Source of the DNA: a virus
Lineage: Duplodnaviria > Heunggongvirae > Uroviricota > Caudoviricetes
Length of the DNA: 6,969 nucleotides
Reading direction: 5' to 3' (one strand)
IMG/VR virus record: IMGVR_UViG_2582580933_000008
Location: 1-6,969 of that record
The notes beneath the pieces are model-generated. The model did no database searches. It was given only the letters and a program-made list of their open reading frames with translations, and was not told the origin of the DNA. Positions 4,703-6,969 of the stretch are shown here, one piece after another. Within the stretch, counting starts at the first letter, position 1. Each line of letters starts with the position of its first letter. Position numbers and translations under genes: made by a program.

Positions 4703-4889
4703 GGTATGGATATCTTACCATCTTATTCCCATGCAGACATGGAACGCCCTGCATAATTGGGACTTCATTAACAGTTAAATCCATGTACATAAAACTCTGT
4801 CGCTGAACAATTTTTATATTACATGGCTGACCAGCCAGACTTACCGAAATGGACTGAGATTTGCTGGGAAGAACAGATACTGTAATCAT
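4587..4889 (-). CDS. Hypothetical tail/baseplate-associated protein (100 aa)
   Basis: ATG 4889..4887 overlaps the stop TGA 4888..4886 of the upstream gene (ATGA coupling), which argues the ORF is translated. Translation MITVSVLPSKSQSISVSLAGQPCNIKIVQ...YLLYYIEENELV is protein-like, with no family I recognise and no PAAR or LysM motif. Its 3' end overlaps the hub ORF in a different frame. Confidence 0.5.
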   Translation of the reverse strand: MITVSVLPSKSQSISVSLAGQPCNIKIVQRQSFMYMDLTVNEVPIMQGVPCLHGNKMVRYPYLGFKGDLIFIDNDGESDPRWEGLGSRYLLYYIEENELV

Positions 4890-5701
4890 GTACTCGCCTT
4901 AACTATATTTTTTGCAATATCTGCCGCTTTTTTTGTTGCGCTGTTTGTGACTTCGAGTATTGGTTTGGATACCGTATCAAGAGCACTCTGAAATTCAGTC
5001 TTGATTGTGTCGGAGATTTTTCCAGTGATTTCGCCAACAGATGACTTCAGTGATGACCATGATTTACTTAGCTCATCGACAGTAGATTCCCTGGCTCCGC
5101 CATTGGTTATTTGCGGATCAACTCCTACATCTCCCTGCGACTTATTGTTATCCGTTGGCTTCTGTTCTGACTGAGATCCGGAGAGGATAACCTCCATTTG
5201 CTGAATGACCTCCTGAAAATCAAGATAAACCGTCAGAAGAGTCACCCCCTTTTGAGAGTTAACTTCGTAATAGTGGTCAACAAGGTCGAAACTCTCCAGA
5301 GTTTCCTTCGGCGTTTCAATATCGTATGTTTTTGCAGAGGACAGCATCGTTTTGATTGTGTTCAGCGTGCTGTTCTGGCTTGTGAATGTGAGATCGAAAA
5401 TATTCGGGATGTTGCCGGAAAAACCAGTAAGACCATTTACGATGATTGCACATCTTACTCTGGCGGGTTCTTTAACTTTGTTGATGGACTGGTATTTCCC
5501 TTTCTCCACCGGAGCGTTTGTTATTTGCGCCCTTCCGCTTGGCTGTACGGATGCCATACCACTGAACTCAAGAGCAACCTCGCCAGTTTCCCTGTCACGA
5601 ATCACATACTGAGGATGCAGAACGCTGTCGATGATCGAAAGCGGAGAGCCACCACCGATAGCATTGAATATGTCTGCTGTGTTTAAATCGATTATGCCCA
5701 T
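4886..5701 (-). CDS. Hypothetical tail-associated protein (271 aa), first gene of the baseplate operon
   Basis: ATG 5701..5699 is preceded by GGAGA with a 4-nt spacer (minus strand ...GGAGAGTAG ATG). The N-terminal two thirds look globular; the C-terminal third is a Ser/Thr/Lys-rich, probably helical tail (...SKSWSSLKSSVGEITGKISDTIKTEFQSALDTVSKPILEVTNSATKKAADIAKNIVKAST). No LysM motif seen. It occupies the slot just upstream of the hub that Mu N-like or XkdP-like proteins occupy in related gene orders, but I cannot assign it. Confidence 0.55.
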   Translation of the reverse strand: MGIIDLNTADIFNAIGGGSPLSIIDSVLHPQYVIRDRETGEVALEFSGMASVQPSGRAQITNAPVEKGKYQSINKVKEPARVRCAIIVNGLTGFSGNIPNIFDLTFTSQNSTLNTIKTMLSSAKTYDIETPKETLESFDLVDHYYEVNSQKGVTLLTVYLDFQEVIQQMEVILSGSQSEQKPTDNNKSQGDVGVDPQITNGGARESTVDELSKSWSSLKSSVGEITGKISDTIKTEFQSALDTVSKPILEVTNSATKKAADIAKNIVKAST

Positions 5702-5710
5702 CTACTCTCC

Positions 5711-5743
5711 ATTAAACAAAAAACCCACCTGACGGTGGGTTTT
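5711..5743 (-). terminator. Rho-independent terminator hairpin (works in both orientations, stronger on the minus strand)
   Basis: Perfect 10-bp stem, 5720..5729 aaaacccacc and 5734..5743 ggtgggtttt, with a 4-nt loop tgac. On the minus-strand RNA the stem is followed by UUUUUUGUUUAAU. It starts 1 nt after the TAA stop (5747..5745) of the upstream gene and ends 9 nt before the RBS of the 271-aa gene. Confidence 0.65.
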
Positions 5744-5744
5744 A

Positions 5745-6164
5745 TTAGTGCTTGTATAGGTTGAACTCTCTATCAAGCCATATAACAAAAAATGTCGATC
5801 CAAGACGATAACCAACCATGGCTTTCAAATCATCAAATCTAAAAGCCAAGAAATGATCTACGTCTTCCGTTATATGACTGGGGATACCTGCTTTAATGGC
5901 ACCCCTTGCAATCTTCTCAAATCCAAGCTTATGCCTACCTTGCTGCTTAATCTCTGCCCATGTTAGTTGACTTAATCTGTATAATTTATCAGCTAAGCCA
6001 GCTTTCTCATCTTTTTGGCATTTCGTTATGCAGTGAGAGCTTTGGATGTAACAGAATGAAAATTTCGGTTTCTTTTGATCTGAATTCCCCCCTGACTGCG
6101 GCCCTAACTTTAACTTACCTGTAGATTCAGCAGGGGGGATAATCCTTTTAGATTTTCTTGCCAT
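5745..6164 (-). CDS. Candidate toxin partner of the Panacea-domain protein (139 aa, unrecognised family)
   Basis: ATG 6164..6162 lies 4 nt after the PanA-like stop TAA 6171..6169, suggesting coupled translation. The track's longer form starts at TTG 6239 and would overlap PanA by 71 nt. Translation MARKSKRIIPPAESTGKLKLGPQSGGNSDQKKPKFSF CYIQSSHCITKC ...RHKLGFEKIARGAIKAGIPSHITEDVDHFLAFRFDDLKAMVGYRLGSTFFVIWLDREFNLYKH. Features: a basic, probably disordered N-terminus, a C-x5-HC-x3-C cluster, and a C-terminal region with faint resemblance to HigB/RelE-type patterns (HKLGFEKI..G.P; GYRL...FVI...YKH). The toxin role is inferred from gene context only. Confidence 0.55.
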   Translation of the reverse strand: MARKSKRIIPPAESTGKLKLGPQSGGNSDQKKPKFSFCYIQSSHCITKCQKDEKAGLADKLYRLSQLTWAEIKQQGRHKLGFEKIARGAIKAGIPSHITEDVDHFLAFRFDDLKAMVGYRLGSTFFVIWLDREFNLYKH

Positions 6165-6168
6165 CTCG

Positions 6169-6612
6169 TTAGTTAATCCGAGTTGCAAAGTACTCTGCCA
6201 TCTCCTTAGAGCTAATTTCAGAACCACCAACACCCTCAATATAGTTTGATCTCCATGGTGACTCTTCGTGTGTCATGTTCCTCAGTTTCCAGGCAGAAAA
6301 TTGCCCAAAAACATCCCAGACTTCTTCTAATAGCTCTAACTGTTCTTCGCTGAATTTTTCAGCATCAAAAGACTCTGGAGAAGGGATAGCGCCATTACCA
6401 TATTGTTTATAACGGCGATAAAGCTCAGGGACAACAGGGCCATGCATCCAAGCTTCCATCTTATTCTGAAAAAGAGGCTCGCCAAGCAACGCCAATGAAA
6501 AACCCTGAGCATAGTAAACAAGCTTTTGTAATTTTAAATTAGAGATTGTGTCACCGCTATCCTCGTCACACCGCGACAGGAAGTAGTCGGCGACATCAAA
6601 ACAAGTAAGCAT
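6169..6612 (-). CDS. Panacea (DUF4065)-domain protein, SocA/PanA-like putative antitoxin
   Basis: Translation ...SNLKLQKLVYYAQGFSLALLGEPLFQNKMEAWMHGPVVPELYRRYKQYG...FSAWKLRNMTHEESPWRSNY matches the DUF4065/Panacea consensus as I know it (LQKLlYya.g..l...g.plf...feAw.yGPV.pelY ... H.e.pW). Preferred start is ATG 6612..6610 with GGAGG (plus 6620..6624) 7 nt upstream; the GTG at 6618 in the ORF track is too close to that SD. This gives 147 aa. Confidence 0.8.
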   Translation of the reverse strand: MLTCFDVADYFLSRCDEDSGDTISNLKLQKLVYYAQGFSLALLGEPLFQNKMEAWMHGPVVPELYRRYKQYGNGAIPSPESFDAEKFSEEQLELLEEVWDVFGQFSAWKLRNMTHEESPWRSNYIEGVGGSEISSKEMAEYFATRIN

Positions 6613-6700
6613 GAACACACCTCCATCTTGATAGCCACAGCTAAGTATCCAACTATGTCAAATGTCATTTAATACTATAACAAAGCTATCAGCAATCCTT
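6613..6700 (-). promoter_or_regulatory. Leader of the PanA-like operon: strong SD plus candidate promoter/operator elements
   Basis: GGAGG SD at 6620..6624. On the minus strand a consensus -35 hexamer TTGACA (plus 6661..6656) lies within a tandem TGACAT-t-TGACAT repeat (plus 6655..6668 atgtcaaatgtcat). I could not pair it with a convincing -10 at 16-18 bp; TATAGT/TAGTAT-like hexamers lie further upstream around plus 6675..6685. The exact promoter is unresolved. Confidence 0.3.
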
Positions 6701-6822
6701 CGGAGGCTAACTTACAACCACTTTAGCGACATGTTTAAACCATTACGTTTCACATTTACTGCATTTTCGCCGAAGTTACCTATAAGGTAATGTCACATTT
6801 CCTGCAAGTTTCATGCAATGTT

Positions 6823-6845
6823 GAAAAGTGAGCTATTCACTTTTC
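6823..6845. repeat. Perfect 9-bp inverted repeat with 5-nt spacer (GAAAAGTGA-gctat-TCACTTTTC)
   Basis: Read directly: 6823..6831 gaaaagtga, 6832..6836 gctat, 6837..6845 tcacttttc. It is not followed by a U-tract on either strand, so it is more likely a protein-binding palindrome than a terminator. Confidence 0.3.
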
Positions 6846-6913
6846 TATGACACCAAACACCAAAAATAGCACTTTTTGCTAAATCATTCGTCCAAGTTGT
6901 GGATGGTTTGTCG

Positions 6914-6969
6914 TTGACACGTTTTCACACACCATTATCAGTCTTGCAAAAGATAAGACTCCATTATCA
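6914..6969. promoter_or_regulatory. Operator-like repeat cluster at the window edge: TTGACA, then CCATTATCA direct repeats flanking a 6-bp inverted repeat
   Basis: Read directly: TTGACA at 6914..6919; CCATTATCA at 6932..6940 and again at 6961..6969; between them AGTCTT (6940..6945) - gcaaaagat - AAGACT (6955..6960). The arrangement DR-IR-N9-IR-DR is symmetric and reaches the last base of the window, so it may continue beyond it. Confidence 0.3.

Follow-up and report, generated by a model that had tools for sequence, protein, structure and literature searches.

A Panacea cassette between tape measure and baseplate genes: probable junction within a single late tail operon of an E. coli prophage related to phage GF-2

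Why should a phage baseplate gene cluster begin abruptly behind a transcription terminator, with none of the genes for the rest of the tail beside it? The question is raised by a stretch of 6,969 bases from a caudovirus record (IMG/VR IMGVR_UViG_2582580933_000008, positions 1 to 6,969; hereafter the window), in which the baseplate and cassette genes are all called on the minus strand, with a PanA antitoxin gene first and a fibre gene last. In minus-strand order they encode the PanA antitoxin, a candidate toxin, proteins of 271 and 100 amino acids, a hub, a spike, a gp25-like protein, a J-like protein, a DUF2612 protein and the fibre; genes for sheath, tube and tape measure are absent from the 6969 bases. 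An earlier sequence-only reading correctly placed the abrupt start of the 271-aa gene after a terminator, the Panacea cassette and about 350 bp of non-coding DNA, and took this to suggest a prophage remnant, a tailocin-like fragment or a rearranged genome lacking its tail genes, or else a cassette inserted at an operon boundary. We find instead that the region very probably lies where the two halves of a single, intact late tail operon meet across an accessory slot, in an E. coli prophage that is a temperate myovirus of lambdoid type and related to phages GF-2 and Edno5. That sheath, tube and tape measure are missing from the window is due to its boundaries and is not a property of the element.

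The baseplate genes of the window

The 100-aa protein (4587..4889; this and all following features of the window are on the minus strand) matched Pfam PF22479 Pam3_gp18 at 82.5 bits (cut-off 24.2) over profile positions 3-100 of 101. It shares 64% identity with GF-2 gp25 and gave weak PDB sequence matches to E217 gp33 and a Pa193 baseplate chain. Judged by these likenesses, it is a plug, or adaptor, of the Pam3 gp18 type and a full-length baseplate part. The hub (3713..4594) was assigned through phrog_196 baseplate hub (E = 6e-68) and is 44% identical to GF-2 gp26; its start codon is uncertain, the choices being TTG 4594 (by analogy with GF-2), ATG 4666 (RefSeq) and TTG 4702 (longest ORF). The central spike (3028..3720) is identified by full-length likeness (51% identity) to GF-2 gp27, which is annotated as a baseplate spike, together with Pfam matches to a gpV-type N-terminal domain and an Apex motif that stay below threshold. 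The gp25-like sheath initiator (2672..3031) matched phrog_120 (E = 9e-37), is 72% identical to GF-2 gp28 and, in precomputed Pfam annotation of an identical gene product, carries PF10934 Sheath_initiator; RefSeq gives it an alternative start at 3016. Two wedge proteins follow. The J/gp47-type protein (1446..2675) matched Pfam PF04865 above cut-off (36.4 bits) as well as phrog_6, is 66% identical to GF-2 gp29 and is the counterpart of Pam3 gp22. The peripheral DUF2612/Phage_Wedge1 protein (797..1435) matched Pfam PF11041 above cut-off (175 bits), is 72% identical to GF-2 gp30 and is the counterpart of Pam3 gp23.

The tail fibre gene (1..794) begins at ATG 794 and is cut by the left end of the window, which holds its N-terminal 264 codons. 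Its N-terminal half is 59% identical to GF-2 gp31, and bases 163-409 have 85-90% identity to HK97-type side tail fibre genes. RefSeq flags the gene as a pseudogene; we rejected this, as the frame is open throughout 1..794 and the ORF, completed in a genome that matches the window at 99.9% identity, is intact at 270 aa. In an NCBIfam scan of nine window proteins and the completed fibre ORF, none earned a family name above threshold.

The first gene of the baseplate cluster (4886..5701), directly upstream of the plug gene, encodes the 271-aa protein, most likely the tail tube initiator, a Dit-like ring protein of tube fold. This assignment draws on a low-confidence model and a sub-threshold Pfam match. 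The protein scored 22.6 bits against PF21821 Dit_like, just below the cut-off of 24.2, and the same domain is present in precomputed Pfam annotation on several of its homologues; of the two profile checks that the sequence-only reading had proposed, the one on the 100-aa protein thus gave an above-threshold name and this one did not. The AF2 model has a mean pLDDT of 50, rising to about 70-80 in a core at residues 31-167. Its best Foldseek matches were baseplate chains of Pa193, E217, Bas63 and Pam3 (E = 3e-6 to 7e-4), with TM-scores of only 0.3-0.47. A helical C-terminal tail of about 100 residues, modelled with low confidence, is longer than in the Pam3, E217 and Pa193 proteins. Searches against PDB chains with the single sequence and with a 22-sequence profile returned noise only (a nanobody, designed helical bundles). 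Nearly all of the listed homologues measure 269-284 aa, which makes this copy a full-length one. The idea that the 271-aa and 100-aa proteins are truncated upstream tail proteins is not borne out, both being full-length baseplate parts. The 271-aa protein probably has a tube-like core, as in tube initiators.

In cyanophage Pam3 the baseplate genes run tube initiator, plug, hub, spike, sheath initiator, wedge J, wedge 1 and fibre, with gp17 in the position of the 271-aa gene (PMC9942802). The module of the window has the same order as Pam3 gp17-gp24, with hub, spike, sheath initiator, J-type wedge, DUF2612 wedge and fibre in the Pam3/E217-type succession. The encoded set thus very probably amounts to a minimal baseplate of this type, made up of tube initiator, plug, hub, spike, sheath initiator, two wedges and fibre. 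It has a single gene at the position where E217 has a gp37/gp38 heterodimer layer (PMC10329688). The baseplates of Pam3 and of the Pseudomonas phages E217 and Pa193 have been solved by cryo-EM; in sequence, the proteins of the window resemble the solved ones marginally or not detectably. Two "hypothetical" proteins that are common among prophages of E. coli gain working assignments, as a probable tube initiator and a plug.

Tail genes beyond the window and in relatives

Continuity past position 6969 was read from near-identical genomes and not from the window's own contig. E. coli Z1323CEC0006 matches the window over 100% of its length at 99.9% identity (9 mismatches), and there the tail genes follow in normal order, starting 1.1 kb past position 6969. 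A 270-bp fibre-C ORF with a fragment and a 77-aa antisense ORF come first. Next are a 605-aa tape measure with an SLT domain and two genes at the chaperone position, one of which matches tail-assembly-chaperone families. Tube (PF22764), sheath (DUF3383), neck terminator, head genes and terminase complete the series; the families matched by tube, sheath and neck terminator take their names from E217 proteins or from proteins closely related to them. The same prophage has int/xis, cI/cro/cII, nin, replication and lysis genes, and a Q-like antiterminator at the usual position (phrog_753, E = 7e-67). Capsid and portal genes are present along with terminase, integrase and replication genes. A genome without tail genes, whether as remnant, tailocin-like element or product of rearrangement, is refuted by this continuation, which is one of the two outcomes that the sequence-only reading had named as refuting it; the other, the same arrangement in functional relatives, is found too.

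The same arrangement in relatives tells against tail-gene loss too. GF-2, an Edwardsiella phage of the genus Gofduovirus, is a temperate myovirus like Edno5. Eight baseplate and fibre proteins and five upstream tail proteins of the window's prophage are collinear with those of GF-2 at 33-73% amino-acid identity, and the likeness extends to a lambdoid early and regulatory layout. GF-2 has its tail operon broken at the same point, between tape measure and the homologue of the 271-aa gene, with a terminator directly before the latter. Edno5, with 66% identity in the 271-aa protein, is 92% identical to GF-2 over 75% of its genome; it undergoes spontaneous induction and makes plaques, and electron microscopy shows it to be a myovirus (PMC6372524). 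GF-2 thus provides the arrangement directly and plaque-forming Edno5, judged by its close relationship to GF-2, shares it. When the window was compared by megablast with 50,697 phage records, its baseplate region matched neither GF-2 nor Edno5, and the prophage therefore looks like a relative and not a member of Gofduovirus. The arrangement of baseplate and tail genes is an ordinary one.

Alternative accounts and transcription across the terminator

Could the window nevertheless come from a degraded prophage or tailocin-like remnant, an orphan baseplate cluster with no tape measure, tube or sheath? Such decay would fit strain 720632, whose baseplate module (85% coverage, 89% identity) is accompanied by no megablast match to the tail module, and the IS insertions found in some copies: the best-match prophage carries IS100 between its lysis and terminase genes, and a second copy in the same genome has its plug region disrupted by an IS. 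Some copies are thus decaying, and this particular prophage may, because of such insertions, not be inducible. However, strain 720632 is one of 21 module-bearing strains among 5426 complete E. coli genomes, and the other 20 have the tail module, at 1.76-4.95 kb from the baseplate module in those with both coordinates listed. An identical 271-aa protein was found in ten contexts that we read, and in all ten the order was sheath, tube, chaperones, tape measure, variable slot and 271-aa gene. Within the window itself, nine genes are intact and full length, judged by their frames and the lengths of homologues, and the last 35 bases (6935-6969) match only the arrangement that continues to the tape measure. 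A tailocin was rejected, as the matching prophage has head, terminase and integrase genes. We regard a remnant of either kind as extremely unlikely.

The terminator itself invites a different account, in which it and the cassette split the tail genes into two transcription units and leave the baseplate cluster as an operon with its own promoter. It is indeed a strong one. A G+C-rich hairpin (5720..5743), with 10-bp arms that are 100% complementary and a T-run at about 5711-5719, closes the accessory slot, and a terminator followed by a ribosome-binding site and ATG lies directly upstream of the 271-aa gene in every slot-bearing relative aligned, GF-2 included. Yet a mere 18 nt, with GGAGAG among them, separate the hairpin from ATG 5701, and a sigma-70 consensus scan of the minus strand over 4500-6969 found no site at its threshold, a cassette promoter included. 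The prophage also has the Q-like antiterminator in its usual place, and in P22-like phages this cassette and the immI terminators precede the tailspike gene within the late region. A separate baseplate operon is, on this evidence, very unlikely.

If the tail genes form a single late operon, as we prefer, the baseplate genes would have no promoter of their own and would depend on late, Q-antiterminated transcription that reads through the slot terminator. Both read-through and dependence on Q are proposed by analogy with the late operons of lambda and P22. In P22, transcription antiterminated by gp23 passes through the region of the immI terminators ahead of the tailspike gene. A tail operon that seems to start abruptly behind a terminator does not show that a phage is truncated, least of all in lambdoid phages, where late transcription passes through terminators.

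The accessory slot and its Panacea cassette

Tape measure and 271-aa gene are separated by a variable slot, 1.7-5 kb long, whose cargo differs among relatives. P22-immI-type genes (Arc/Mnt/antirepressor) are usual, and LexA-like proteins are found in some relatives. GF-2 has Arc/Arc/Ant (immI-like) between its tape measure and the 271-aa homologue, where the window has the Panacea pair, and EcE.CRE.COL combines a Panacea pair with LexA-like and antirepressor genes. In relatives the cassette adjoins Arc/Mnt/Ant-type genes, whereas no arc, mnt or ant is found in the window. In the more distant Klebsiella phage RCIP0114, which has these genes as well, there is no slot, and tape measure and tube initiator stand only 3 bp apart. 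The cassette of the window sits in a conserved accessory slot within the tail operon; the proposal that a cassette had been inserted was right in this respect and mistaken in placing it at an operon boundary. In this prophage family, the slot is a place to seek accessory cargo.

The cassette also has a second kind of host. The region 5718-6934 (cassette, leader and terminator) is 99.5-99.8% identical to that of phiv205-1 and Emek, P22-like podophages of Escherichia and Salmonella, respectively, that share the immI cassette, whereas the virion of its host here is contractile-tailed. In Emek, the cassette and terminator lie between a DNA-transfer gene and mnt/arc/ant/tailspike, and the hairpin sequence is the one that accompanies the cassette there, where it is annotated as a terminator. 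In both types of phage the cassette occupies the late structural region, after ejection or tape-measure genes and before tail-tip genes, and in the window the intrinsic terminator stands directly upstream of a tail-tip gene, as is typical of immI. The non-coding leader (6619..6969; 351 bp, 37-40% G+C) has no credible ORF. Bases 6619-6934 move with the cassette, and bases 6935-6969 are part of the slot segment that comes next; homology to phiv205-1, Emek and EcE.CRE.COL ends at 6934. At its other end, the cassette joins myovirus sequence at the T-tract of its terminator. An Rfam search of the whole window at E <= 1 returned nothing, so no sar-type immI antisense RNA was detected.

More tentatively, the gap between tape measure and tube initiator could be a hotspot for cargo shared across virion types, with the Panacea pair as an abortive-infection or exclusion system and not a simple addiction module. 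Jointly we consider these two propositions possible but rather doubtful. On such a reading, P22-like podophages and GF-2-like myophages may swap ready-made regulatory or defence cassettes, and the conserved T-tract of the terminator may serve as the recombination joint.

The PanA-type antitoxin (6169..6612) matched the Panacea/DUF4065 family (Pfam PF13274; 87.2 bits, cut-off 25.7), and the NCBIfam SocA model below its cut-off. Its partner (5745..6164; 139 aa, phrog_8366) lies 4 nt away, and the pair, which could probably be expressed on its own in the lysogen, travels together. Kurata et al. (2022, PMC8832971) describe the Panacea domain as one that neutralises toxin domains of dozens of unrelated kinds, and in PanA-PanT pairs the Panacea-domain protein lies beside a small uncharacterised prophage gene, as here. 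In contrast to the type II pairs, the partner in the window has no named domain, and its toxicity and its neutralisation by PanA are putative. Neither Pfam nor NCBIfam gave a match, nor did a profile of its family find one among PDB sequences. Its AF2 model (pLDDT 86) gave weak, non-significant Foldseek matches only, of RelE/YoeB/HigB-like type (E = 0.1-1). We flag it as an uncharacterised toxin candidate, whose family counts 182 homologues spread over many phyla.

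Tail genes beyond the window

Every credible gene of the window lies on its minus strand. In that direction a non-coding stretch of 37-40% G+C (6969-6619) is followed by a Panacea-domain protein (6612-6169; Pfam PF13274, 87 bits), a 139-aa ORF (6164-5745; phrog_8366, without a Pfam match), a G+C-rich 10-bp hairpin with a T-run (5743-5720), and an RBS (GGAGAG) ahead of the ATG of the 271-aa gene at 5701. Beyond it lie the 100-aa gene, the genes of the hub and spike, the gp25-like, J-like and DUF2612 genes, and the first part of a fibre gene. All of these features were present as the sequence-only reading had described them, so that its account of the window holds. 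Within the 6969 bases there is no gene for a sheath, tube or tape measure, which had raised the suspicion of a truncated operon in a prophage remnant, tailocin-like fragment or rearranged genome.

The chromosome of E. coli Z1323CEC0006 matches the window end to end with 9 mismatches; the baseplate genes also have a 100% match in E. coli strain TB354. Read on the minus strand of Z1323CEC0006, the order past 6969 is a fibre-C fragment and an 89-aa Phage_fiber_C ORF, an antisense 77-aa ORF, a 605-aa protein that resembles tape measures in its N-terminal part (phrog_2013, phrog_9570) and carries an SLT lytic domain, a pair of small genes where the chaperones are expected, the tube (PF22764) and sheath (DUF3383, phrog_205), and then the neck terminator (PF23961), head genes, portal and terminase. 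One of the two chaperone-position genes matches tail-assembly-chaperone families (phrog_1932; PF21822 below cut-off). Farther out lie lysis genes, a Q-like antiterminator (phrog_753, E = 7e-67), nin, replication, cII/cro/cI, xis and int genes. The matching prophage is complete, with a lambdoid layout and a contractile tail. A remnant or tailocin was rejected because the prophage has tail, head, portal, terminase, lysis, replication and int genes, and a tail-less rearrangement is contradicted by the tape measure, tube and sheath lying in normal order in this near-identical genome.

The same prophage carries IS100 between its lysis and terminase genes. A second copy in that genome, at 2.01 Mb, is interrupted at the plug gene by an IS (DDE_Tnp_1 transposase; 10971-12179 of that locus, L008, corresponding to window ~4745-4753). 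The window-matching copy lies between dacD and a truncated yjbH/gfc locus, flanks that suggest an inversion between the two copies.

Probable tube initiator, plug and functional relatives

The first two proteins of the module had been left unassigned, as possible diverged or truncated upstream tail proteins. The 100-aa protein (4587-4889, minus strand) matches Pfam Pam3_gp18 (plug) with 82.5 bits along almost the full profile and, weakly, E217 gp33, an adaptor bound to C-terminal extensions of tube-like ring proteins (PMC10329688). We assign it as the plug with high confidence. The 271-aa protein (4886-5701, minus strand) scores just under the Pfam Dit_like cut-off, and several homologues have Dit_like in precomputed Pfam. 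It has 201 homologues at E <= 0.001, those listed being almost all 269-284 aa, so this copy is full-size and not truncated. Its AlphaFold model is poor (mean pLDDT 50), with a moderately confident beta-rich core at 31-167 followed by helices. In a Foldseek search of the PDB, the top ranks were baseplate chains of Pa193, E217, Bas63 and Pam3, and lower ranks included diffocin, pyocin R2, extracellular contractile injection systems and SPP1 Dit. Pam3 encodes, in order, tube initiator gp17 (a tube-like beta-barrel with a helical C-terminal domain), plug gp18, hub gp19, spike gp20, sheath initiator gp21, wedge gp22/gp23 and fibre gp24 (PMC9942802), and the window's gene order corresponds to this series one for one. 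We assign the 271-aa protein as the tube initiator with moderate confidence.

The Edwardsiella phage GF-2 has homologues of all eight baseplate and fibre proteins (44-73% identity) and of the five upstream tail proteins (33-73%), all in the same order, with 2.4 kb holding Arc-like genes and an antirepressor between the tape measure gp18 and the 271-aa homologue gp24. Its close relative Edno5, whose 271-aa homologue is 66% identical, shows spontaneous induction, plaques and myovirus morphology, and its authors described a P22-like ImmI region (PMC6372524). The more distant Klebsiella phage RCIP0114 has the same genes (29-49% identity) but no such slot, its tape measure and tube initiator being separated by 3 bp (6075-8834 of its locus, L018). 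Since the interrupted order recurs in GF-2 and the slot is missing from RCIP0114, interruption of the tail operon is lineage-specific yet normal. The order is also kept in all ten contexts read for the identical 271-aa protein in public assemblies: neck terminator, sheath, tube, chaperones, tape measure, variable stretch, 271-aa gene, baseplate genes. The apparent absence of upstream tail genes is thus an effect of the window's edge together with a known kind of accessory slot. With the tail genes in normal order past 6969 and the same arrangement in functional relatives, the two observations that the sequence-only reading had named as refuting it, the suspicion of a truncated operon falls; the interrupted arrangement is already known from characterised, functional phages, and nothing in it would surprise a phage specialist. 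The structural genes of RCIP0114, all annotated as hypothetical, can be named by homology to this module.

For the 99.9% match, RefSeq labels the fibre gene (1-794; 19982-20794 of the Z1323CEC0006 locus, L001) as a pseudogene without an N-terminus; we rejected this label, as the ORF is open from its ATG at 794 onward and reaches 270 aa when completed. It is a mosaic gene, with a GF-2-fibre-like N-terminal half and a segment (163-409) that shows 85-90% identity to side tail fibre genes of the HK97 type. Of the nine mismatches to the best-matching genome, six are grouped at 124-214. The hub start is ambiguous (4587-4702), with candidates at TTG 4594 (overlapping the plug stop by 8 nt, the GF-2 arrangement), ATG 4666 (RefSeq) and TTG 4702 (longest ORF), and the product is 293 or 317 aa depending on the gene caller.

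The accessory slot and its terminator

Among 5426 complete E. coli genomes, the baseplate module occurs in 21 and the tail module in 20. The distance from tape-measure stop to 271-aa start, by hand subtraction of listed coordinates, is 1757 bp in TB354, 2392 bp in the window's type and ~4950 bp in A41 and EC16. Cargo varies by strain: Arc/Arc/antirepressor, LexA-like with a Bro-N/P22_AR antirepressor, P63C, DUF2513 or the Panacea pair, the last occurring together with LexA-like/antirepressor genes in EcE.CRE.COL. The Phage_fiber_C ORF of the window's variant (full-length phrog_576 match) and the fragment of a second (L001 27062-27557) lie 93-588 bp past the window's right end, between tape measure and cassette; TB354 carries the same cassette in a slot that is ~635 bp shorter, from which these ORFs seem to be absent.

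The 100 bp that precede the 271-aa gene in the window were aligned with the corresponding stretches of GF-2, of three E. coli relatives and of the P22-like phage Emek. A hairpin with a T-run stands immediately 5' of the RBS and ATG in every slot-bearing relative aligned. Cassette-free E. coli relatives have one hairpin sequence in common, ACCCAGCTTCGGCTGGG; that of the window, AAAACCCACCGTCAGGTGGGTTTT, is identical to the hairpin following the same cassette in Emek. The window and Emek diverge straight after the T-run (~5718), and the window resembles its myovirus relatives from ~5741 downstream. On these boundaries, the cassette was joined at the terminator's T-tract. Given the 18 nt between hairpin and ATG of the 271-aa gene, and a promoter scan that found no sigma-70-like site on the coding (minus) strand, we infer that baseplate expression would need read-through of the slot terminator by Q-modified late transcription, an established mechanism of lambda and P22 late operons.

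The Panacea cassette and its toxin candidate

Over positions 5718-6934 the window shows 99.5-99.8% identity to Salmonella phage Emek and Escherichia phage phiv205-1. In Emek the cassette is placed in the immI region, with a DNA-transfer gene on one side and mnt/arc/ant/tailspike on the other. The cassette is thus an accessory module common to podophages and these myophages, and its position in the two is analogous. The family of the PanA partner (139 aa, 5745-6164, minus strand) counts at least 182 proteins and spans many phyla, with homologues in Proteobacteria, Acidobacteria, Cyanobacteria and Solidesulfovibrio; it has neither a Pfam domain nor an NCBIfam name. Its AF2 model is confident (pLDDT 86). 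Fold matches to RelE/YoeB/HigB toxins are weak and non-significant (best E = 0.1, TM ~0.4-0.6), so this predicted fold serves as no more than a lead. Many unrelated toxins are known as partners of PanA domains (PMC8832971). We regard the 139-aa protein as an uncharacterised toxin candidate.

The stretch upstream of panA (6750-6806) contains a perfect palindrome, TTACCTTATAGGTAA, with a 14-nt direct repeat on either side of it (TCACATTTACTGCA and TCACATTTCCTGCA on the plus strand, 43 bp apart); the search for a consensus promoter found none. Repeats and palindrome may form an operator through which the cassette regulates itself. At 6934 the homology with EcE.CRE.COL and the P22-like phages stops, and this point is spanned by a 12-nt direct repeat, ACACCATTATCA and ACTCCATTATCA (6929-6940 and 6958-6969), which may represent microhomology at the cassette's upstream joint.
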